A DNA stretch of 64,000 nt from Candidatus Vogelbacteria bacterium (GTDB taxonomy: Bacteria > Patescibacteriota > Minisyncoccia > Phycocordibacterales > XYD1-FULL-46-19), in assembly GCA_021414225.1 (NCBI GenBank), contig JAIOOX010000002.1:25113-89112 (forward strand), read 5' to 3'. Within the stretch, counting starts at the first letter, position 1, and the number at the start of each line of letters is the position of its first letter. The notes under the pieces are model-generated. The model was given only the letters and a program-made list of their open reading frames with translations, ran no database searches and was not told the DNA's origin. A program made the translations under genes and the position numbers. This document shows, piece by piece, positions 49,734 to 58,483 of the stretch.

Positions 49734-51035
49734 ATGAAGAAAATCAATATTTTTCAGATAGTTCTACTTTTCATCTTTGGGTTTGGTTTGGTCATTGGGG
49801 TGTTAATCTTTTCGGGTATATTACCTGGTTTTAAAAAGACAACCACTGTCAGTCAAAAGTCAGTGGTCATGTGGGGGGATATAGCAGTCAGTAAAGCATC
49901 TAATTTTATAGCTGAACTTAATCGAGCAAACAAAGATTCTTTTTTTGTCAGTTATGTTTATAAGGACCCTAGTACTTATGAGACTGAGTTAATCAATGCA
50001 CTAGCTCACGGTAAGGGTCCGGATTTAATTCTTCTTCATGACAGATCAATTGTTAAGTTAGAAAAATTGATCGAGCCACTACCTTATACTTCTTTACGGG
50101 TAACTGATTTTAAGAATACTTTTATTGATGGAGCTAGTGTTTTCTTGACCTCGGTTGGCACTTTAGCTATTCCTATCAGTGTTGATCCGTTGGTGATGTA
50201 TTACAACAAAGATCTTTATATTAAAGCTAATATTTTTCAACCGCCTCAAAATTGGTCTGGTTTCCAAAACAATCATAAGGTTTTAAACTCGGTTAGTGAC
50301 CAGGGGATCATCTCTCAAAGCGGGGTAGCTTTAGGTAATTTCCCTAACATAAAAAACGCAAAAGAAATTTTACTGACTTTATTGATGCAGGCTGGTGCCC
50401 CTTTGGTTGTTAGAACACCTAATAATAATTACCAAGTGTCATTGGGTGATATTTCTGGCAATAGTAATAGTATTTACTCAGCTTTAGATTTCTTTACCAG
50501 ATTTGCTACTCCAGGCCGAGCGGAATATTCTTGGAATAATTCATTTCCAGAAGCAGCTACCACCTTCACTAATGGCTTTACAGCTAATTATTTTGGTTTC
50601 GCTAGTGAAATCCAAACCCTGCGAGCTCTCAATCCTAATTTAAACTTAGCGATCACTTCTTTACCTCAAATAGACGAGGCTCCTCGACCTTTGACGTATG
50701 GTCGTTTGGATGGAGTGGCGGTTTTGAAAAGCTCCAAAAATAAATCAGTGGCTTTTTCAGTAGCTATAGCGATGTTTGATCGAGAAAATAGTGCTAAATT
50801 ATCTGAGGCTTTATCATTAGCCTCTCCTCGCAAAGATTTATTGGTGCGTATTTCCAATGATGAATTTAAAGATCTCTTTAATCACTCAGCTTTGATTTCT
50901 AGTTCGTGGCTGGATCCAAATCCTGATGCTTCCAAAAAGGTATTTCAATCCAGCGCTAACGCTGTCACGATTGGTATTAATGGACCAGAAAAATCTATGT
51001 CTCAAATGTTCGAACAATTAAAAAATTTATTTTAA
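49734..51035 (+). CDS. Membrane-anchored extracellular solute-binding-protein-like protein (family 1 SBP-like). Orphan: no permease or ATPase nearby.
   Basis: N-terminal TM anchor, then an SBP-like pattern (VVMWGD...YETELINALAHGKGPDLILLHD). 433 aa. Confidence 0.45.
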   Translation: MKKINIFQIVLLFIFGFGLVIGVLIFSGILPGFKKTTTVSQKSVVMWGDIAVSKASNFIAELNRANKDSFFVSYVYKDPSTYETELINALAHGKGPDLILLHDRSIVKLEKLIEPLPYTSLRVTDFKNTFIDGASVFLTSVGTLAIPISVDPLVMYYNKDLYIKANIFQPPQNWSGFQNNHKVLNSVSDQGIISQSGVALGNFPNIKNAKEILLTLLMQAGAPLVVRTPNNNYQVSLGDISGNSNSIYSALDFFTRFATPGRAEYSWNNSFPEAATTFTNGFTANYFGFASEIQTLRALNPNLNLAITSLPQIDEAPRPLTYGRLDGVAVLKSSKNKSVAFSVAIAMFDRENSAKLSEALSLASPRKDLLVRISNDEFKDLFNHSALISSSWLDPNPDASKKVFQSSANAVTIGINGPEKSMSQMFEQLKNLF

Positions 51036-51041
51036 TTAACA

Positions 51042-51518
51042 ATGAATATAAATAAATTATCTTCAGGATTAATTATTTTATCTCTAGTTTTTGTTGGGCT
51101 ATTTTTTATTGCGCCGGTGGTTGATGCTCAAGTGGTTAGCAAGTTGGTTCCTTGTGGTGACGCTGGACGACCAGACTGCACTTTTAAAGATTTAGCTCTT
51201 TTGATCACGGCGGTGATTAAGTTTCTGATTTTTCAAGTAGGAATATTGGTAGCCACCATTGTGATTATTTGGGGTGGGGTGCTTTATGTTTTGTATCCTT
51301 ATAAACCAGGTTACAAAGATACTGCCAAAAAAATGATTACTGGTTCGATCGTGGGCCTACTTATTATGATGGGAGCGTATCTCATTGTTAAAACCCTGGT
51401 TACTAGTGTGGTCGGCCCTTCGGCTGATGACGCTAATCCAGCTGATAAGGCGGATTTGATTGAGGCGGTTAATAATACTTTTCAAGATTTACCAAATACT
51501 TCCCAGTCACCAAACTAG
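51042..51518 (+). CDS. Pilin-like small secreted/membrane protein, paralog 1 (TrbC/VirB2-like two-helix hairpin)
   Basis: Signal peptide (...VVDAQ), then the conserved hairpin LIFQVGILVATIVIIWGGVLYVLYPYKPGYKDTAKKMITGSIVGLLIMMGAYLIV shared with the next four ORFs. Confidence 0.5.
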   Translation: MNINKLSSGLIILSLVFVGLFFIAPVVDAQVVSKLVPCGDAGRPDCTFKDLALLITAVIKFLIFQVGILVATIVIIWGGVLYVLYPYKPGYKDTAKKMITGSIVGLLIMMGAYLIVKTLVTSVVGPSADDANPADKADLIEAVNNTFQDLPNTSQSPN

Positions 51519-51552
51519 TAAGTATCTTTTCCCTTTGAATATTTAATTTGTT

Positions 51553-51954
51553 ATGATTACTGGTATGAAAAAAATATGCAAATCACTTTATTTAAAAGGG
51601 TTGGGTATTTCGGTGTTTCTGGTGCCTTTATTGAGCTCGGCGACAACCGACGTTAACCCTGGTGGAGGGGACTCTTTTTCGCTGCAGATTGTTAACCCTC
51701 TCAGTGTTGGTAGTTTAGAGGGGCTGCTCGATTTATTACTGAAAATTTTATTACAGATTGGTATACCGGTGGTCACTTTTATGATCATTTGGTCTGGTTT
51801 CTTATTTATTAAAGCTCAAGGTAAAGAGGGTGAAGTGACCAAAGCCAAAGAAAATTTACAATGGGTCCTAATCGGGACAGCAATTGTGTTGGGGGTTGGT
51901 TCAATCTTAGCTATTATCAAAACAACTGTCGCTGCCTTGGGTGGTGGTGTTTAA
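51553..51954 (+). CDS. Pilin-like small protein, paralog 2
   Basis: Signal peptide, then IGIPVVTFMIIWSGFLFIKAQGKEGEVTKAKENLQWVLIGTAIVLGVGSILAI (same WG...K-rich...second TM pattern). Confidence 0.5.
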   Translation: MITGMKKICKSLYLKGLGISVFLVPLLSSATTDVNPGGGDSFSLQIVNPLSVGSLEGLLDLLLKILLQIGIPVVTFMIIWSGFLFIKAQGKEGEVTKAKENLQWVLIGTAIVLGVGSILAIIKTTVAALGGGV

Positions 51955-51961
51955 TTAAATC

Positions 51962-52492
51962 ATGACATATTTAAAATCAAAGAAGTTTAGTTGCTTGAGT
52001 CTCGGTTTATTTTTAGTGGCTATCATCTTAGTTCCAACTTTAGCTTTAGCTCAACCTGGTGGTTTGCCTGGTGGAGCTGGTAACGGGTCGGGCGGGAACG
52101 GGGGTCCTTCAGGGGGGGATATTCCTGGTGGTGATGGTGGTTCTGGGACTATTCCGAATAATACCAACCAGGGCTGCGATCTATCAACGGCTACTTTTAA
52201 GACGCTGGTCGACTGTGTTCGTGATTCAATCGTGGTGCCTATTATTAACCTACTCTTGGCTTTGGCGGTCTTGGTCTTTTTTTGGGGCTTAGTCAAATAT
52301 CTATATAAAGGTGATAACGACGCTGAGCGGACCAAAGGTAAAAGTTTGATGGCTTTTGGGATCATTGGACTTTTTGTAATGGTAAGTGTTTGGGGGATAG
52401 TTGGTTTGTTAACTGGAACTTTTTTTGGGGCTAGTGGTCCAGCAGGTGTTAATCCACCGGTTCCTCAGTTGCCAGCTAGTATTACTCTATAA
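51962..52492 (+). CDS. Pilin-like small protein, paralog 3, with a Gly-rich linker
   Basis: Signal peptide (LALAQP), GGxGG low-complexity linker, CDL...LVDC cysteine pair, then LALAVLVFFWGLVKYLYKGDNDAERTKGKSLMAFGIIGLFVMVSVWGIVGLL. Confidence 0.5.
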   Translation: MTYLKSKKFSCLSLGLFLVAIILVPTLALAQPGGLPGGAGNGSGGNGGPSGGDIPGGDGGSGTIPNNTNQGCDLSTATFKTLVDCVRDSIVVPIINLLLALAVLVFFWGLVKYLYKGDNDAERTKGKSLMAFGIIGLFVMVSVWGIVGLLTGTFFGASGPAGVNPPVPQLPASITL

Positions 52493-52552
52493 GGGTGGTA
52501 TAATGTTCTTATTATTAAATTGGGTCGTTTATTATTTTATTTTTTAAATTAT

Positions 52553-52933
52553 ATGAAGAAAGTTGTTGCAACAATTGGTTCTGGTTTAGCTTTGACGCCT
52601 TTCTTGGCTCTAGCTCAAAGTTTTGATCCGAATGGTTATATCGCAAGTATCATAACTTCCTTTAGTGGTTGGATTAATGTGCTTATCGGTATTTTGGTTA
52701 CCTTGGCCGTTTTGGTTTTTATTTGGGGTTTGATCACTTACTTGCTTAATGCTAGTAATGAAGAAAAGCGCTCAGATTCAAAGTGGTATATGATTTATGG
52801 TATAGTTATTTTGTTCGTTATGGTTAGTATTTGGGGTCTAGTAGGGCTTCTTCAAAATATTACTGGAGCGGAATCTAACGTAGACGCTGGTGGTATTGAT
52901 ATTCCAACAGTAACAGGTACAGATATTCAGTAG
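52553..52933 (+). CDS. Pilin-like small protein, paralog 4. Internal Met start used; the ORF track starts at 52520.
   Basis: Signal peptide (FLALAQS), then LIGILVTLAVLVFIWGLITYLLNASNEEKRSDSKWYMIYGIVILFVMVSIWGLVGLL. Very close to paralog 3 in the hairpin. Confidence 0.5.
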   Translation: MKKVVATIGSGLALTPFLALAQSFDPNGYIASIITSFSGWINVLIGILVTLAVLVFIWGLITYLLNASNEEKRSDSKWYMIYGIVILFVMVSIWGLVGLLQNITGAESNVDAGGIDIPTVTGTDIQ

Positions 52934-52938
52934 CTAAC

Positions 52939-53175
52939 GTGGTTATCATTGAAAATCTTAAGAGTCAGATATTAAACCCCTTGATTGGTTTCTTGTTTGT
53001 GTTGGCCACCCTCTACTTTGTGTGGGGAGTGTTCCAATTTATTCAAAATGCTGATAGTGATACTGGCCGACAGCAAGGTCGCGACAGTATCTTGTGGGGA
53101 TTGTTTGGAATGTTCATCATGGTAGCCGTGTTTGGGATCATGTGGACTATTTGTAACACTGTTCAGTGTCAATAA
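52939..53175 (+). CDS. Pilin-like small protein, paralog 5 (minimal, hairpin only)
   Basis: LIGFLFVLATLYFVWGVFQFIQNADSDTGRQQGRDSILWGLFGMFIMVAVFGIMW, followed by a C-terminal CNTVQC. Confidence 0.45.
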   Translation: MVIIENLKSQILNPLIGFLFVLATLYFVWGVFQFIQNADSDTGRQQGRDSILWGLFGMFIMVAVFGIMWTICNTVQCQ

Positions 53176-53196
53176 ATCTTAAGTAAGGGAAATAAT

Positions 53197-53229
53197 AAAG
53201 CCGCCTCGCGTAAACGCTTGGCGGCTTTG
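53197..53229. terminator. Hairpin aagccgcc-tcgcgtaaacgctt-ggcggctt between the pilin-like array (+) and the GC-rich island (-)
   Basis: 8-bp GC stem with a 14-nt loop. Confidence 0.5.
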
Positions 53230-53260
53230 TGGTTGGGAAACTCAAGGTGACAAATCGTCC

Positions 53261-54142
53261 CTACATCTTGTATAGGTAGACAGTCACCGTGGTTTCCTTA
53301 CCATTGGTTGATTGGAACTTCAGTGTTCCGAGGTTGTTGAGATTGATGCCGTGGTTGACACCTTTCTCGGCTTGAGGGTTATCGGTGTAGGGCGCGTCCA
53401 TATATGGCCTCACCCCGTTTCCCACGACCATGACCACGTCGTGGGGATTGAACGTGACCTTGTAGTGGCTAACCACAAGAGTCACTTCCAGGTCCTTCTC
53501 GCCGGTTTTGGCCTTCATCTTGCCTTCCCCGGCGCTCGCTGTTTCGCCAATAGTCTTGGACCAGCCGGTGGCTGGTACAGAGACAGTGAACTTGGCGATG
53601 TCGTGTGCTCCCTCCGGTAACGGGCCGATCCGTTTGGGGTCGACCTTGGTTCCAGGTAGGGTGGGGAGACTCAAGTTCTGGAAAACAACCTTAGGGTCTG
53701 TTTCACCTAACCCATTAGCATTAGCTAGTGGAGTCAGAATCAACAAGAGTAACCCAGTGGTCAAGGCCGCTTTCCAGAAGCGTGACCTTCCAATCCTGAC
53801 GGCGTCTTTCTCGTAGGAGAGAAAGTACGAACCGCCAGCCATGAGAAGGACTACCATTGCGATGATGGTGTAGCCCGTGTTGGTCACGAACCACAAGAAC
53901 CAGGCTGGGAACACCCACCAGGTGGCGAAGACCACCACAGTCCAGTAGGCGACCCAGGCACCAGTTAGGAATGGATCCCACTCTGGACCTTTCGGTTTAG
54001 GGGCTGTTACGGGAGTGCCACCAGCAGTGGTTGTCCTGGGAGTTGGGCCTCCTGTAGATTTCCACATTTTTCTGACATCATCCCAGTATCGGAAGAGGGC
54101 TACTAACCCGATTCCGAGTAAGGCGATTGCTACCGAACTCAT
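53261..54142 (-). CDS. NfeD-like membrane protein (TM helices plus C-terminal beta-rich soluble domain). GC-rich foreign composition.
   Basis: 293 aa: Pro/Thr-rich linker, about four TM helices (WVAYWTVVVFATWWVF..., IIAMVVLLMAGGSYFL..., LTTGLLLLILTPL), beta-strand-rich C-terminus. Four-base overlap with the upstream SPFH-like gene. Confidence 0.35.
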   Translation of the reverse strand: MSSVAIALLGIGLVALFRYWDDVRKMWKSTGGPTPRTTTAGGTPVTAPKPKGPEWDPFLTGAWVAYWTVVVFATWWVFPAWFLWFVTNTGYTIIAMVVLLMAGGSYFLSYEKDAVRIGRSRFWKAALTTGLLLLILTPLANANGLGETDPKVVFQNLSLPTLPGTKVDPKRIGPLPEGAHDIAKFTVSVPATGWSKTIGETASAGEGKMKAKTGEKDLEVTLVVSHYKVTFNPHDVVMVVGNGVRPYMDAPYTDNPQAEKGVNHGINLNNLGTLKFQSTNGKETTVTVYLYKM

Positions 54143-55521
54143 GAAGTAGAACCTTTCTTTTTCCTCGCCGGCTTTTGAGTGGCTGGCGGAGTCGTAGGTT
54201 GAGTCTCCGGTTTTGTTTCAGAGACTTTTTTCAGGGTTTGGGCGATTTGGGTTGCTATCCCCGAGATACCCCCATCGCCGATAATGTGCACGGCATTGGG
54301 GTTGCTCAGGCCTGCCTTGGCCGCGTCAATGACAAGGGCCTCTTGGCCCGACACTCCCGTGGCGGTTTGGATTTTTTTGAGTCCAGCCGCCTCGGCAGTC
54401 ATCATTCGCAGGTGGTTGTTAGCGAGAGCTTCCCCTGCGCGTTGTGTTTCCACCCCTTTCCCAATAGACTCAGCGATTTTTTGGATCTCTGCGTTGAGGG
54501 AGTGACTGGTCAACACCTTGAAGTTTTTGACCTGAGTGAATCTCAAGCCAATCTCGTCTTCTATCAGTTTTCGCAGGGCGTTAACCGATAGTCTTTTGAT
54601 ATCTGGTCTGGTTGTGGTGGTCACCTCTTTGTAGTCTATCCTGTTCTCTGCGAGAGCTTCCAGGACATATCGGGTGACGTAGCGGCTGATAGCATCAACA
54701 TTACGTTGTGCGCGGGCCGCCGTGCCTACCTGGCAGACTGAGCGCATCCCACTTTCGATCAGGTCTCGGACGTAATTTGTGGCGTCCTCGATCGAGTCGA
54801 AAGCGATGTCAAACCGCAAGCCTTTGGTGATTTGCATTGTGTAGGACGCCGACACCTCCGCAATGACCCGGGTTTTAAGCGGGTCCTTGTATTGATCGGC
54901 TATCTCATCCTTAACTTGTCCCTTGTCTGGTTTTACCACCACTGCCGGGACGAAGTTGTATTTTTCCTCGGTGGCGGGATCTCCCAAAGTTGGAGTAATT
55001 GTCACCGTCTGACTCAGTATATCTTCTTCGTCGGCAGGATCAGCGGATTCAAACGGCACAAAAATTGGTTCTATCCAATAATCTGGTACCATCTTCCCAC
55101 TGGCATCCTTTTTCATCCCTTTTGGCTCAGAGGGTAGTGGTTGCGGATTTCCTTGGTCGTCCTTTCCCCTCCAGAGATCTTCTGGGTTGGCAGGTACTTC
55201 TCGGGTGATGATCGCTCTCGGGTAACGATTGACGGTTGTCAGTCCCCAAAATCCAGGGACGATACCAGCATCGATTGATCCGATGCGATAGCCCAGAAAT
55301 TGAAGGACCCCCACATCTTTCGCGCCGTCCACTTTGGTGTGAATGGTGCCGTAGAGACAGTAGGCAATCCACCAGATCAGTACGACGTTTCTCCAGTTGA
55401 TACTGGTGGACGTCTCATTTTGATTTTCCACCGGCAGGCCGTTAGGCATTGCCAAGTAGATGATCACAAAGATTGCTACCATAACCACGATGGACCATCC
55501 TGAATACTGACGGGTTGTCAT
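54139..55521 (-). CDS. SPFH / band-7 (stomatin/flotillin)-like membrane protein, divergent. GC-rich foreign composition.
   Basis: N-terminal TM helix, then GVLQFLGYRIGS...PGFWGLTTV resembling the SPFH core (ERFGRY...PGLxxxxPF). Long Ala/Glu/Gln-rich helical region and a basic Pro/Thr-rich tail. GC-rich third codon positions, unlike the neighbouring genes. Confidence 0.35.
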   Translation of the reverse strand: MTTRQYSGWSIVVMVAIFVIIYLAMPNGLPVENQNETSTSINWRNVVLIWWIAYCLYGTIHTKVDGAKDVGVLQFLGYRIGSIDAGIVPGFWGLTTVNRYPRAIITREVPANPEDLWRGKDDQGNPQPLPSEPKGMKKDASGKMVPDYWIEPIFVPFESADPADEEDILSQTVTITPTLGDPATEEKYNFVPAVVVKPDKGQVKDEIADQYKDPLKTRVIAEVSASYTMQITKGLRFDIAFDSIEDATNYVRDLIESGMRSVCQVGTAARAQRNVDAISRYVTRYVLEALAENRIDYKEVTTTTRPDIKRLSVNALRKLIEDEIGLRFTQVKNFKVLTSHSLNAEIQKIAESIGKGVETQRAGEALANNHLRMMTAEAAGLKKIQTATGVSGQEALVIDAAKAGLSNPNAVHIIGDGGISGIATQIAQTLKKVSETKPETQPTTPPATQKPARKKKGSTS

Positions 55522-55737
55522 CTTCTTTTCTCCTGGTTTTTGCCCTTAAGCAAACACCTTTTTGTTTGTTTCCAATCAACTGTCAACGACCTTTCAATAT
55601 CTCTACAGCAGGGGATAATAGCCCCAACTGAGTATCTTTACTTCCACTCTCTATTATATCAGGTTTTATGAAAAAGTCAAGGGGTCTTAAATAACAAAAT
55701 ACCCCTGAGAATTAGGGGGATTTTACTACAAATCCAG

Positions 55738-55866
55738 GCGAGGGGAGACTCGCCCGCGACTAAATTTTTTGTCGACACAAAAAATTTGTCTGGGCACCAC
55801 CTCGGCCCCAAACTCTGCTGAGTCTGGACTGCGTGGCCTCCGGTGTTCGAGTCTCCCCTCGCCCCT
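55738..55866 (-). repeat. Family 3 tRNA-spacer repeat, copy a, bounded by the 15-nt perfect inverted repeat gcgaggggagactcg / cgagtctcccctcgc derived from the tRNA-Leu(TAG) 3' end
   Basis: Contains the AT-rich hairpin aaattttttgt-cgac-acaaaaaattt and the conserved segment tctgggcaccacctcggcccc...ctggactgcgtggcctccggtgttcgagtc, homologous to 56330..56412 and more loosely to 56040..56115. Confidence 0.6.
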
Positions 55867-55913
55867 ACAAAATAAAAAGCCCCAAAGCTATCGCTTTGAG
55901 ACTTAATATTTTG

Positions 55914-55995
55914 TGAGCGAGGGGAGACTCGAACTCCCAACCCGTGAGGGACTAGTTCCTAAGACTAGCGCGTATACCAATTCCGCCACTCGCCC
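55914..55995 (-). tRNA. tRNA-Leu (anticodon TAG), type II
   Basis: Minus-strand read GGGCGAGTGGCGGAATTGGTATACGCGCTAGTCTTAGGAACTAGTCCCTCACGGGTTGGGAGTTCGAGTCTCCCCTCGCTC. Anticodon loop ctTAGga, long variable arm. Confidence 0.8.
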
Positions 55996-56023
55996 GATGT
56001 TTTGTTGTGAGAAATTCGGTCAC

Positions 56024-56166
56024 AAATAATTTTGCTGTGCAAAATTTTCGCGACCCCGCCTCGGTCACAGTCTTCGACTGGCTTTGCGACCTGTGGCTTT
56101 CGAATCCCTCACAGGGACTACCAAACAATATTCATTCAATATTTTATATTGAATTCATTTGTTTGG
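56024..56166 (-). repeat. Family 3 tRNA-spacer repeat, copy b, plus an 88-nt near-perfect palindrome (56098..56185) that runs into the tRNA-Lys 3' half
   Basis: ttcgaatccctcacaggg (56098..56115) is the exact inverted copy of the tRNA-Lys T-arm / acceptor 3' strand at 56168..56185. The spacer between them, actaccaaacaatattcattcaatatttt | atattgaattcatttgtttggtg, is itself palindromic. Confidence 0.6.
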
Positions 56167-56239
56167 TGCCCTGTGAGGGATTCGAACCCCCGACCATCTC
56201 CTTAAGAGGGAGTTGCTCTACCAACTGAGCTAACAGGGC
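56167..56239 (-). tRNA. tRNA-Lys (anticodon CTT)
   Basis: Minus-strand read GCCCTGTTAGCTCAGTTGGTAGAGCAACTCCCTCTTAAGGAGATGGTCGGGGGTTCGAATCCCTCACAGGGCA. Anticodon loop ctCTTaa. Confidence 0.8.
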
Positions 56240-56290
56240 AATTGTAGGATTATAGTTTATTTGAGGGGGAAATTCAATTTTATAACCAAG

Positions 56291-56433
56291 TAAGTTGGGA
56301 CTCTCCTTTGACTTAAAATTTTCTACCCGAAAATTTTAGTCTAGGCACCGCCTCGCGCCGAAATGTTGCTACATTTCGACTTCGTGCGCTCCGGCGTTCG
56401 AGTCCCACCCAAAATTTAACTTTGTTAAATTTG
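56291..56433 (-). repeat. Family 3 tRNA-spacer repeat, copy c, ending in an inverted copy (ttcgagtcccaccc) of the tRNA-Leu(TAA) T arm
   Basis: AT-rich hairpin gacttaaaatttt-ctacccg-aaaattttagtc, then tctaggcaccgcctcgcgccg...cgacttcgtgcgctccggcgttcgagtcccaccc, about 75% identical to copy a, then palindrome aaaatttaac-tttg-ttaaattt. Confidence 0.6.
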
Positions 56434-56514
56434 TGCCCGGGGTGGGACTCGAACCCACAAGGCTTGCGCCACACGATTTTAAGTCGTGCGTGTATACCAT
56501 TCCACCACCCGGGC
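56434..56514 (-). tRNA. tRNA-Leu (anticodon TAA), type II
   Basis: Minus-strand read GCCCGGGTGGTGGAATGGTATACACGCACGACTTAAAATCGTGTGGCGCAAGCCTTGTGGGTTCGAGTCCCACCCCGGGCA. Anticodon loop ctTAAaa. Confidence 0.8.
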
Positions 56515-56555
56515 ATATTTTTTAAAATCAATTTGCTACTGCAATTTGATTTTTG

Positions 56556-56627
56556 AGGCGTGGGCGGGAATCGAACCCGCGTATAAAGCTTTTGCAGAGC
56601 TTCGCCTTACCACTTGGCCACCACGCC
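56556..56627 (-). tRNA. tRNA-Cys (anticodon GCA)
   Basis: Minus-strand read GGCGTGGTGGCCAAGTGGTAAGGCGAAGCTCTGCAAAAGCTTTATACGCGGGTTCGATTCCCGCCCACGCCT. Anticodon loop ctGCAaa. Confidence 0.85.
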
Positions 56628-56634
56628 TGTAAGT

Positions 56635-56958
56635 TTAAATTGTATCTGCTTCGATATCAACTAATGCCTCATTCGAAGCAAGAGCGATGTCGATACGAGG
56701 CACATTACCGATTTTTGTCTCATTACGCAAATATTCATACAGGTCGGTTCTGAGACGCTTAAGTTCTTTCAATACCTCATCGGTAGCGGTATCTGGGAGA
56801 ACTGAGACGAAGACAGTCGCACTAGCGTTGTTTTTTTCCAATACACAACCAGTGACGGTTACTAGAGCTCGAGAAGCAACATTGCGCACAAAAAATTCTG
56901 CCGCGGTGCGAGTAATAACCTCTTCAACTCGTTTGTGATGTTTGGTGTAATCGTCCAT
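56635..56958 (-). CDS. rbfA: Ribosome-binding factor A
   Basis: 107 aa, immediately downstream of infB (conserved infB-rbfA order). ...VSVLPDTATDEVLKELKRLRTDLYEYL... KH-like. Confidence 0.7.
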   Translation of the reverse strand: MDDYTKHHKRVEEVITRTAAEFFVRNVASRALVTVTGCVLEKNNASATVFVSVLPDTATDEVLKELKRLRTDLYEYLRNETKIGNVPRIDIALASNEALVDIEADTI

Positions 56959-56971
56959 GGTTAATTATAGG

Positions 56972-58483
56972 CTATTTAGCCACTCGTTCAAATATTTCTA
57001 AAATATCACCAGGGGCAATAACGATCTTGGAATCAATCATGGTTCCAAATTGACCAGGTGGTTCAACGCGGTCGGTCTTGGCTTTATGTTGTTCAAGTTC
57101 GGCCACTTTACCTCGACCAATTTCAATGTCGCGACGGATAATTTTAATTTCTTTGCCTTTAACAAAGACACCGTCTAAGACTTGACCCCCGACTACTTGT
57201 TTATCTTTGTTGGCACTGAAACATTTTAGAATTTTGGCTCGGCCGGTTGTTTCTTCGATAGTCACTTTTGGTCGGCGTTTAGATACCTCCTCAGCTAGCC
57301 ACTCAGCTAGTTTGTAAATAATATCAAAAGTGACAATGGTAACATCAAATCGTTCAGCAATATCTTTGGCACTAGTGTCAGTTTTGACTTGGAAGCCTAA
57401 AATAATAGCGGAGTTTGAACCACTGCCTAGTTTGGCATCGTTGTCGGTGATAGCTCCAATACTCTTGCCGATAATTTTCAGGCGAACTCGTTCATCAACA
57501 ATTTTTAAAACTTCTTTTTCGACTGCTTCCAAGGTGCCAATAGTATCAGCTTTGATAATGATTGGTATTTCAATTGCATCAGCTCCTAGTTCTGGAGTGT
57601 GACTTGGGTTGTTGGTATTAGCACCTAGGGTGCGACCAGTTTTTTCATGATGATCAGCCGCTTTCTTGTCCTTTAAGCCGTTGATAATAGCTCCGACGGC
57701 TGGTACTTCAGCAAAACCGTAAAGAAGAACAGGGGAGGATAAGGTGGCTTCTTTTAAGGGTTGGCCTAAAAAGTTTTCCATCTTTTTAATTTTAGCTACC
57801 ACTCCTTCGACGCCAACATAGTCACCTAAGTGTAGGGTTCCATTTTTAATAATAGCTGTAACGGTCACTCCAATTTTTGGGTCACGATTGGTTTCCAAAA
57901 TCAAAGCTTCGCCAGGCAGGCTAGGGTCGCCACTTTTTGCTTCTAGATCTGAAACTAAAATAAGTAGATCCAGTAAATCATCAATCCCCTCACCAGTTTT
58001 AGCTGAAATATTAACACTAGGAATAGTACCTCCATATGACTCAACAAAGACTTCCTGTTCGGCTAATTCTTGTTTGACTTTATCGGGGTTGGCATTGGGT
58101 CGGTCGATTTTGTTGATAGCAACAACAAAGGGCACCCCAGCTTCTTTGACTGATTTGAGAGCCTCAATAGTTTGAGCTTTGACTCCTTCTTCAGCGGAGA
58201 CCAACAAAATAGCAATATCAGAAATTTGGGCGCCACGGTTACGCATGGAAGAAAAAGCTTCATGACCAGGTGTATCTAAGAAGGTGATGGTGTGTTCCTT
58301 TCCTTCGGTGACATGTTTAACTTCATAAGCGCTAACATGTTGAGTAATACCACCCGCTTCACCCGCGACAGTGTTTGATTTACGAATATAATCAAGCAAG
58401 GTTGATTTGCCGTGGTCAATATGACCAACAACAACCACGACAGGTGGTTTGGCTTTAATTGTAGATTGAGAATTATTAGTCAT
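56972..58483 (-). CDS. infB: Translation initiation factor IF-2 (compact, lacking the long N-terminal region)
   Basis: G domain VVVVVGHIDHGKSTLLD, DTPGHEAF, NKID. IF-2 domain II and C-terminal beta-barrels. 503 aa. Confidence 0.85.
   Translation of the reverse strand: MTNNSQSTIKAKPPVVVVVGHIDHGKSTLLDYIRKSNTVAGEAGGITQHVSAYEVKHVTEGKEHTITFLDTPGHEAFSSMRNRGAQISDIAILLVSAEEGVKAQTIEALKSVKEAGVPFVVAINKIDRPNANPDKVKQELAEQEVFVESYGGTIPSVNISAKTGEGIDDLLDLLILVSDLEAKSGDPSLPGEALILETNRDPKIGVTVTAIIKNGTLHLGDYVGVEGVVAKIKKMENFLGQPLKEATLSSPVLLYGFAEVPAVGAIINGLKDKKAADHHEKTGRTLGANTNNPSHTPELGADAIEIPIIIKADTIGTLEAVEKEVLKIVDERVRLKIIGKSIGAITDNDAKLGSGSNSAIILGFQVKTDTSAKDIAERFDVTIVTFDIIYKLAEWLAEEVSKRRPKVTIEETTGRAKILKCFSANKDKQVVGGQVLDGVFVKGKEIKIIRRDIEIGRGKVAELEQHKAKTDRVEPPGQFGTMIDSKIVIAPGDILEIFERVAK

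Follow-up and report, generated by a model that had tools for sequence, protein, structure and literature searches.

A GC-rich SPFH gene pair at a conserved position in Vogelbacteria and Paceibacterota

Gene layout and composition of the pair

The DNA analysed here (hereafter, the window) comprises 64,000 nucleotides and is part of a 409-kb contig from a metagenome-assembled genome (MAG) of Candidatus Vogelbacteria, which belongs to the candidate phyla radiation (CPR)/Patescibacteria. Our subject is a pair of adjacent genes in this window, one of which encodes an SPFH-family protein of 460 aa and the other a partner membrane protein of 293 aa (Table 1). An earlier reading of the sequence alone (the sequence-only reading) had regarded the pair as a compositionally foreign, horizontally acquired island. 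Our analysis bears out the unusual composition; the pair, however, is a fixed component of a conserved gene block of Vogelbacteria/Paceibacterota and not an inserted island.

The NCBI database holds counterparts of both proteins with 100% identity (K8Q91_01060 and K8Q91_01055). As described before, the two genes form a minus-strand operon with the ORF (open reading frame) coordinates given in Table 1, and the stop codon of the SPFH gene overlaps the start codon of the partner gene by 4 nt (ATGA), which implies that translation of the partner would be coupled to that of the SPFH gene. The pilin-like array and the tRNA array that had been named as neighbours are both real, and both are conserved landmarks in relatives.

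A promoter-like site is located approximately 130 nt upstream of the SPFH start and matches the consensus at 11 of 12 positions, in a region where the total count of such sites equals the shuffle expectation. At the other end of the pair, the terminator that had been placed at 53197 was found as a hairpin (53197-53228; free energy (dG) -28.9 kcal/mol, z -4.3) followed by a U-run. This terminator is shared convergently with the last pilin gene, and L003, a contig of 1.3 kb that was assembled from a different sample, has it at 100% identity. A further hairpin (55877-55904) stands between the tRNA array and the SPFH operon. Given its own promoter-like site and the terminators on both sides, the pair is best regarded as an operon of its own and not as the tail of the tRNA transcript, so that the earlier view of the pair as transcriptionally downstream of the tRNAs has to be abandoned.

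Table 1. Features of the SPFH locus, in window coordinates (TM, transmembrane; AF2, AlphaFold2)
Feature	Position	Strand	Basis or remark
SPFH-family membrane scaffold gene, 460 aa	54139..55521	-	ORF, profile, AF2/Foldseek
Partner membrane protein gene, 293 aa	53261..54142	-	ORF
Partner gene, conserved C-terminal-domain part	53261..53645	-	comparison with L003
Partner gene, variable N-terminal TM/linker part	53646..54142	-	comparison with L003
Promoter-like site	55653..55680	-	TTGACT-16 nt-TATAAT with extended TG, consensus match only
Intrinsic terminator 3' of partner gene	53187..53228	-	hairpin 53197-53228 and U-run
Terminator-like hairpin directly after tRNA-Leu(tag)	55877..55904	-	12 bp and T-run
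tRNA array Leu-tag, Lys-ctt, Leu-taa, Cys-gca	55913..56627	-	upstream landmark conserved in relatives
Five VirB2-like T4SS_pilin (PF18895) genes	51042..53175	+	convergent with the pair, conserved downstream landmark

We calculated GC content and GC content at third codon positions (GC3) for the window and its genes. The 1-kb intervals at 53-55 kb showed a GC of 0.52-0.53, compared with 0.33-0.45 in the rest of the 64 kb. The SPFH gene has a GC of 0.514 and a GC3 of 0.566, and the partner gene 0.539 and 0.639, whereas the 45 other ORFs of the window have a mean GC of 0.405 (standard deviation (sd) 0.023, maximum 0.446) and a mean GC3 of 0.346 (sd 0.040, maximum 0.425). In other words, the two genes lie approximately 5.5 and 7 sd out, and none of the 45 other ORFs is as high. 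The rise in GC is bounded exactly by the two coding sequences, and the promoter region (55522-55700) has a GC of 0.36.

The codon shift is mostly from T to C at third positions. Two-fold NNY codons end in C at fractions of 0.59 and 0.78 in the pair versus 0.33 in the other genes, and the fraction of T at four-fold sites is 0.16-0.21 in the pair versus 0.45 elsewhere. At the four-fold sites of the pair, A, C, G and T make up 0.22, 0.35, 0.24 and 0.18, respectively, whereas all 14 of the other minus-strand genes in the window show a third-position G fraction (G3) of 0.03-0.10 and a T fraction (T3) of 0.35-0.48 at such sites. Thus, the pair lacks both the T3 preference and the replication-strand skew of its host, and the GC, GC3 and codon figures agree with the earlier statement that it is a compositional outlier against the surrounding genes.

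The strand asymmetry at the four-fold sites of the window is very strong, with C 0.14 and G 0.21 in plus-strand genes and C 0.28 and G 0.08 in minus-strand genes, and with T at approximately 0.42 on both strands. The cumulative GC skew climbs monotonically over nearly the whole 64 kb.

We also considered ordinary causes of such a shift. The genes for GroEL, FtsZ and an S1-domain protein in the window, which we used as proxies for high expression, have ordinary GC3; because these proxies are not shifted, the codon usage of the pair is not a bias of the high-expression type. Gene orientation was rejected as a cause, since GC3 is normal in the 14 other minus-strand genes, which also show a strong C>G skew not seen in the pair, and amino-acid composition was rejected, since the shift falls mainly at third positions.

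Conserved position and variable alleles in relatives

Relatives of the locus were gathered via DUF4446 anchoring and by look-up of distant HMMER matches, and 12 other loci were compared with the window (L001, L004, L005, L007, L008, L009, L013, L016, L019, L020, L021 and L022). In all 12, an SPFH-like gene and a partner with TM helices and a beta domain are found directly before a convergent T4SS_pilin array. The upstream RbfA/tRNA block was seen wherever the contig extends that far, and only there. In L001, whose partner homolog is 37% identical to that of the window, a 468-aa SPFH protein (50% identical) and a 286-aa partner occupy the same slot. The genes of L001 are arranged in the order Aminotran_5, DUF4446, IF-2, RbfA, tRNA-Cys/Leu/Lys/Leu, SPFH, partner and pilins; the downstream part consists of four to five opposite-strand T4SS_pilin genes, a solute-binding protein, a methyltransferase and GyrA. 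This gene order is the same as that of the window. The DUF4446-anchored Vogelbacteria/Paceibacterota MAGs (L004, L005, L007, L008 and L009) carry the same block, and their partners, in the same slot, consist of TM, Pro/Thr-rich linker and beta parts. The loci derived from HMMER matches (L013, L016/L017, L019, L020, L021 and L022) again have the SPFH and partner genes before a convergent T4SS_pilin array.

Between the last pilin gene of the window (pil5) and the tRNAs, there is only the pair, with no integrase or mobility gene. Nor does the window contain a direct repeat of a tRNA 3' end at the borders of the pair, and a tblastn search of both proteins against 50,697 phage records gave no match. 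Because the pair is in place at all 12 loci, the view of it as an acquired island is largely refuted, and this by the very test that the sequence-only reading had set for it. What stands of the earlier claim of horizontal acquisition is that the present allele looks imported and that the locus in relatives shows signs of recombination and replacement; the insertion of an island does not stand.

The interval between the tRNAs and the SPFH gene varies in gene content. Upstream of the SPFH gene, L007 (12842-13357), L006 (7941-8456) and L013 (79-633) have an extra gene of 171-184 aa, which lies inside the tRNA array or next to it. The copy in L013 has a precomputed Pfam match to PaaX_M, and the gene may encode a regulator-like protein. 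It is absent from the window, and thus constitutes a presence/absence polymorphism in this interval. L009 has approximately 4.5 kb more of membrane and surface protein genes at the same place.

Next, we compared the composition of the pair across the orthologous loci. With the window included, 12-13 of the 13 loci have a pair of higher GC than its flanks. Among the first 12 loci, the GC of the SPFH gene exceeds that of the flanks in 11 (Wilcoxon p = 0.0015) and the GC of the partner gene in all 12 (Wilcoxon p = 0.0005), and the thirteenth locus, L022, is again at approximately +4 sd. Across the loci, the GC of the pair lies between 0.45 and 0.58 (averages for the two genes, 0.49 and 0.51), compared with 0.38-0.47 for the flanks. 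The GC of the pair is uncorrelated with that of the flanks (r = 0.08 and 0.37), and the GC excess falls with rising host GC (r = -0.61, p = 0.035). The window is among the most extreme loci, and no anomaly is seen in L001 and L020. What the loci have in common at four-fold sites is a depletion of T3 (mean -0.14). The strand skew is also weakened in L004, L005, L007, L008, L009 and L016, and the pair of L001 is host-like. The case of L001 shows that high GC is not an absolute constraint on the pair.

The alleles themselves differ strongly, even between close relatives. When L004 is compared with L005, IF-2, RbfA and DUF4446 show 89-91% amino-acid identity, whereas the SPFH protein shows 19-22%, the partner 21-30%, the pilins 27-49% and the binding protein 51%. 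The SPFH protein of L004 is 40% identical to that of L007, although L007 is more distant (IF-2 62%). The DNA homology between L004 and L005 reaches a segment of 107 nt just upstream of the SPFH start and then ends. This segment (L004 12777-12883 versus L005 13359-13464) is 87% identical, and the SPFH coding sequences behind it are unalignable; it could be a conserved promoter/5' untranslated region and a candidate upstream recombination anchor.

A similar comparison was possible between the window and L003. In the last pilin gene, the two are identical at 98.7% of amino acids and approximately 93% of nucleotides (synonymous divergence (dS) 0.34; ratio of nonsynonymous to synonymous divergence (dN/dS) 0.016), and in the intergenic stretch 53140-53199 all 60 of the 60 aligned positions are identical. 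The C-terminal domain of the partner is approximately 85% identical at the nucleotide level and 86% at the amino-acid level (dS 0.49, dN/dS 0.18). At approximately 53645, which is the boundary between the TM/linker part and the beta domain, the identity falls abruptly to random. Given that dS is only 0.3-0.5, this fall exceeds what neutral divergence would give, and the position marks a recombination breakpoint at the domain boundary of the partner gene.

Overall, the identity of the SPFH proteins tracks that of IF-2 (Spearman 0.57, p = 0.004), and the divergence between the window and L001 alleles is about equal to that of their flanks. Within the block, the SPFH pair varies most strongly, and the pilins and the solute-binding protein are hypervariable as well. 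The five VirB2-like pilins and the solute-binding protein of the window (49734-53175) have ordinary GC in spite of their hypervariability, unlike the SPFH pair. In the corresponding stretches of L004 (14905-18232) and L005 (15582-18939), the pilins and the binding protein are 27-51% identical at the amino-acid level, versus 75-91% for the housekeeping flanks.

The tRNA array on the other side of the pair was also analysed. An Rfam scan of 53000-57000 found four tRNAs only; sub-threshold 'microRNA' matches are a reflection of long hairpins. The coordinates of tRNA-Leu(tag), tRNA-Lys and tRNA-Leu(taa) are 55913-55995, 56164-56239 and 56433-56514, respectively. Downstream of three of the array's four tRNAs, at a distance of 22-50 nt and in the stretch 55735-56460, the tRNA's own 3' segment from T-loop to acceptor (15-18 nt) recurs as a perfect inverted copy; none of the other seven tRNAs of the window has such a copy. 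Inverted copies specific to the respective tRNA (10-15 nt, at a distance of 39-77 nt) were also found in L001, L008, L010, L011 and L016; given this recurrence in five related loci, each tRNA and its copy vary together. The inverted copies also form the ends of two 80-nt elements (55779-55858 and 56330-56409, 73% identical), which resemble decayed opposite-strand tRNA-Leu genes. Together with its trailer, tRNA-Leu(tag) (55830-55998, minus strand) forms a palindrome of approximately 40 bp (dG -90.4 kcal/mol, z -9.9), in which the 3' half of the tRNA pairs with the inverted copy and the terminator hairpin is at the tip, which points to an inverted duplication with the terminator at its centre.

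The orientation of these tRNAs is not stable. Between L004 (12345-12600) and L005 (12345-12739), tRNA-Cys, tRNA-Leu(taa) and tRNA-Lys have flipped individually without a change of order, which is not a block inversion, and the two are close relatives (IF-2 90% identical). The orientation and order of the four tRNAs differ in L007, L008 and L009, too. Thus, of the attachment-like repeats in the sequence-only reading, the repetition of tRNA 3' ends is real, but the copies are inverted and local, with none on the far side of the pair. They look like relics of terminator-centred inverted duplications and not like att sites, and they mark the region as recombinationally active without bounding the SPFH pair. 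An att-like match to the tRNA-Leu 3' end (12 of 15 positions) at 53659-53673, inside the partner gene, was treated as chance because it is approximately 15-20 nt off the breakpoint and absent from L003 and all other loci.

The two membrane proteins

By itself, the 460-aa protein has no Pfam match, and direct scans of both proteins against Pfam, NCBIfam, PHROGs and PADLOC gave nothing meaningful; with the PADLOC defence models, neither the pair nor four orthologs matched at E <= 0.1. A word-indexed homolog search returned the proteins themselves and two partner homologs only, and no relatives came to light when genome, metagenome and viral contigs were scanned for patterns from the SPFH alignment. 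An exhaustive HMMER scan gave 50 distant relatives of the 460-aa protein with 25-32% identity. Its nearest SPFH homolog is the ortholog in L001 (50% identical), and all others are 32% identical or less. In the family alignment, 34 of 40 members match Band_7, and the syntenic orthologs in L007, L008 and L009 do so above the Pfam gathering threshold. The family profile, when compared with known proteins, matched HflK (2e-13), an archaeal (Pyrococcus) stomatin (5e-13) and QmcA (2e-11), as well as prohibitin and flotillin, and hhalign gave a probability of 97.5% for the family profile against E. coli QmcA. A cluster look-up of ten distant homologs provided no function names.

We then predicted the structure of the 460-aa protein with AF2 from an alignment of 50 sequences (predicted local distance difference test score (pLDDT) 81.8). 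In a Foldseek search of the PDB with this model, the best 33 matches were all SPFH proteins (HflK/C, stomatin, erlin, prohibitin, QmcA and flotillin); the best match was HflK/HflC (4.5e-7), and the QmcA structure 8z5g_A was also matched. The identity to these solved SPFH structures is about 8-15%. The model has a beta-rich SPFH core, then a 49-residue coiled-coil helix (340-388) and C-terminal helices at 392-406 and 418-435, and the core contains a conserved beta-rich insertion at about residues 95-160. On the basis of hydropathy, which is how the membrane topology of both proteins was assigned, there is an N-terminal TM helix at residues 11-29 and a second hydrophobic helix at 43-61; the N-terminal helices of the AF2 model are at 4-24 and 43-61. 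These results support the 460-aa protein as a very divergent SPFH member that is recognised by remote methods only (profile and structure). The SPFH/band-7-like core proposed earlier is likewise upheld by the family profile and the AF2 fold only, and the motif quoted for it (GVLQFLGYRIG...PGFWGL) is present in the protein.

The database annotation gives this protein as 397 aa, with a start 63 codons late, the extra stretch being 55333-55521 of the window. An AGGAG motif lies 8 nt 5' of the ATG of the 460-aa ORF, and the L001 ortholog conserves the first 63 residues with their hydrophobic helices. The 460-aa start is therefore favoured over the annotated one.

The partner protein consists of an N-terminal TM helix, a Pro/Thr-rich linker, two to three more TM helices and a beta-rich C-terminal domain of approximately 130 aa, a layout which agrees with the earlier description of a polytopic protein with a beta-rich C-terminus. 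A search of 5.8 billion protein clusters gave only two homologs of it, and a second homolog search seeded by the partner alignment added nothing. All syntenic loci encode a partner of like architecture, in which P190, W194, G203 and a C-terminal strand motif are conserved.

The same description had called the partner NfeD-like. It shares with NfeD proteins the TM helices followed by a small beta-rich domain and the operon with an SPFH gene. However, no relevant Pfam family was found for the window partner at E <= 1 or for four syntenic partners at E <= 0.1, and hhalign gave a probability of 0.5% for an 11-member partner alignment against E. coli YbbJ. A PDB profile search of the partner gave no NfeD, the top match being FliL (E = 0.067). 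The AF2 model of the partner, built from a 3-sequence alignment, has a pLDDT of 44 and is unusable for fold comparison. Thus, NfeD homology of the partner is not supported by its sequence.

Possible origin of the anomaly and comparison with known systems

We propose, with a probability of roughly 0.55, that the window carries an unameliorated allele from a clade-wide pool of approximately 50% GC, in a genome of 40% GC and at a hypervariable conserved locus. We take as shown the composition, the synteny, the SPFH fold, the mosaic breakpoint in the partner gene and the phylogenetic incongruence. As the allele does not bear the synonymous-site signatures of its host, the GC anomaly is best read as unameliorated. 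Recombination, both in the conserved flanks and at domain boundaries, appears to replace or reshuffle the alleles of the pair, and we infer that the import of such an allele caused the GC excess.

The function of the pair is assigned wholly by analogy. The SPFH protein would most likely oligomerise via its long C-terminal helix and so form a membrane-anchored cage around a membrane patch, and the TM helices of the partner would most likely be placed inside or under this cage, in a position like that of NfeD. The small beta domain of the partner may give the specific contact, if HflK/C-FtsH and QmcA-YbbJ are taken as guides. Since the TM/linker half of the partner is hypervariable and the pair varies together with the pilins and the binding protein, the pair may act in the envelope or in host contact. 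It could be speculated that the pair serves a fast-evolving envelope/host-contact module of episymbionts.

Several points weigh against the import of an allele. No donor allele was found. Random exchange does not predict that the pair should be GC-richer than the flanks, unless the pool is GC-richer than the sampled hosts. The depletion of T3 and the intermediate skew, which recur in nearly all genomes, could equally reflect a locus-specific constraint. The synonymous sites of L004 and L005 are probably saturated, so that a lineage-specific burst of divergence in L005 would be inseparable from replacement. In addition, the 13 loci are phylogenetically non-independent.

A possible but less likely explanation is that the pair is a vertically inherited long-term resident whose high GC and low T3 are maintained at the locus, and that the divergence of its proteins is a matter of fast envelope evolution. 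The candidate causes would be selection on synonymous sites or mRNA, locus-specific mutation (such as C-to-T deamination of the coding strand that changes with transcription level) or GC-biased gene conversion (gBGC) at a hotspot. This explanation would account for an anomaly that points the same way in 12-13 of 13 loci, for a rise in GC that is limited to the coding sequences and does not include the promoter region, and for the T3 depletion and intermediate G-C skew in most alleles; it is also consistent with the correlation between SPFH and IF-2 identity and with window and L001 alleles that are about as diverged as their flanks. However, the host-like alleles of L001 and L020 show that the constraint is not universal, and the neighbouring pilins and solute-binding protein evolve fast without being GC-rich. 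The collapse of identity at approximately 53645, at a dS of 0.3-0.5, exceeds neutral divergence, and the SPFH protein of L004 is nearer to that of L007 than to that of its near relative L005. As for gBGC, a heteroduplex would form in the conserved flanks and not in non-homologous cassettes. We therefore prefer the import of an allele to vertical descent.

Two other explanations can be set against the same evidence. An assembler might have jumped over the conserved tRNA and pilin/terminator flanks to the cassette of a co-occurring GC-richer relative, and conserved flanks such as the stretch 53140-53199, combined with a hypervariable locus, could in principle yield chimeric contigs. Yet the independent assembly of L003, from another sample, has the same junction between an AT-rich pilin gene and a GC-rich partner gene, and many unrelated samples (NCBI, ENA and Logan) show an anomaly in the same direction, so we regard such an artefact as very improbable. 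Still harder to credit is the insertion of a two-gene island beside the tRNA array by an integrative element, with the tRNA-derived repeats as its attachment sites. The atypical composition, the tRNA genes that adjoin the pair and the partial tRNA 3'-end copies nearby are what such an insertion might leave; however, the pair is at the same position in 12 of 12 other loci, no integrase or mobility gene is found between pil5 and the tRNAs, and the copies of tRNA 3' ends lie in inverted orientation at 22-50 nt from the tRNA that each of them matches. Moreover, the att-like match in the partner gene is missing from L003 and off the breakpoint, and there were no matches to phages, viral contigs or defence systems.

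A bolder hypothesis, which we consider doubtful, is that the position-locked cassette beside the VirB2-like pilin array is an exchangeable clade-wide pool whose synonymous-site composition (approximately 50% GC, poor in T3, weakly strand-skewed) is decoupled from every host, either because turnover is faster than amelioration or through an undescribed locus-specific process that favours GC in these reduced genomes. The pair would then form a hypervariable, partner-specific membrane compartment linked to the host-contact envelope module of episymbiotic CPR bacteria, and the neighbouring tRNAs, flipping through palindromic duplications centred on terminators, would mark a recombination hotspot.

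SPFH cages (HflK/C, QmcA-YbbJ, stomatin, prohibitin, erlin and flotillin) are a current structural topic. A CPR lineage in which an SPFH protein has a constant non-NfeD partner, both being the most variable members of their block, is a natural experiment on partner specificity. For genome scans, the locus illustrates that a strong GC and codon anomaly need not mean an inserted island; the locus can be conserved and the allele out of equilibrium. It is unusual for 12-13 of 13 genomes to share the direction of such an offset at a single orthologous locus. With population data, this offset could serve to test amelioration, gBGC and synonymous-site selection in uncultured reduced genomes. We consider the corrected interpretation and the clade-wide compositional offset to be the main value of the analysis.

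Replacement by homologous recombination at conserved surface loci is known from O-antigen or capsule loci. Further cases of xenologous replacement at surface loci have been described for the S-layer and glycosylation loci of Haloferax (PMC5867893) and for interspecies locus replacement in haloarchaea (PMC3542582). The SPFH locus resembles them in its conserved position and flanks, its very divergent alleles and its atypical composition. It differs from them in its cargo, which is an inner-membrane scaffold pair and not a surface polymer or S-layer, and in that replacement is inferred here.

The adjoining five-gene PF18895 array is like the 441 VirB2-like pilin arrays reported from Patescibacteria, each with 2-11 variable pilin genes (PMC12102498). 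A term search of the main text of that paper found no mention of SPFH or Band_7, and a literature search for CPR/Patescibacteria together with SPFH or stomatin found nothing relevant. The adjacency of the SPFH pair and the pilin array in 13 of 13 loci may reflect only conserved synteny.

The nearest known system is the QmcA-YbbJ pair of E. coli (SPFH-NfeD, PDB 8z5g), in which, as in the window, the SPFH gene comes first, the partner gene follows after a 4-nt overlap, and the partner has TM helices and then a small beta domain. Unlike YbbJ, the window partner has no NfeD/OB-fold sequence signal, and it has an extra N-terminal TM helix and a Pro/Thr-rich linker. The window SPFH protein, unlike QmcA, has a second N-terminal hydrophobic helix and a conserved core insertion of approximately 60-100 aa, and by itself is too divergent to match Pfam Band_7. 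With the HflK/HflC cage that modulates FtsH (PDB 7vhp, 7vhq, 7wi3, 9cz1/2), it shares the SPFH1/2 domains, the long coiled-coil helix and the C-terminal helices; however, the window has one SPFH gene instead of a K/C heteropair, and no linkage to FtsH was seen at the locus.

SPFH proteins that are missed by domain tools and recognised by operon structure and architecture, including the poorly conserved SPFH5, have been described by Hinderhofer et al. 2009 (PMC2636767), who also proposed the lateral transfer of SPFH-NfeD operons as units. That survey mostly found no GC or codon anomaly in SPFH genes, whereas the anomaly here is strong and recurs across the clade, and the partner is not an identifiable NfeD. 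Thus, the pair is set apart from SPFH-NfeD operons by its non-NfeD partner, the insertion in its SPFH core and its unusual evolutionary behaviour.

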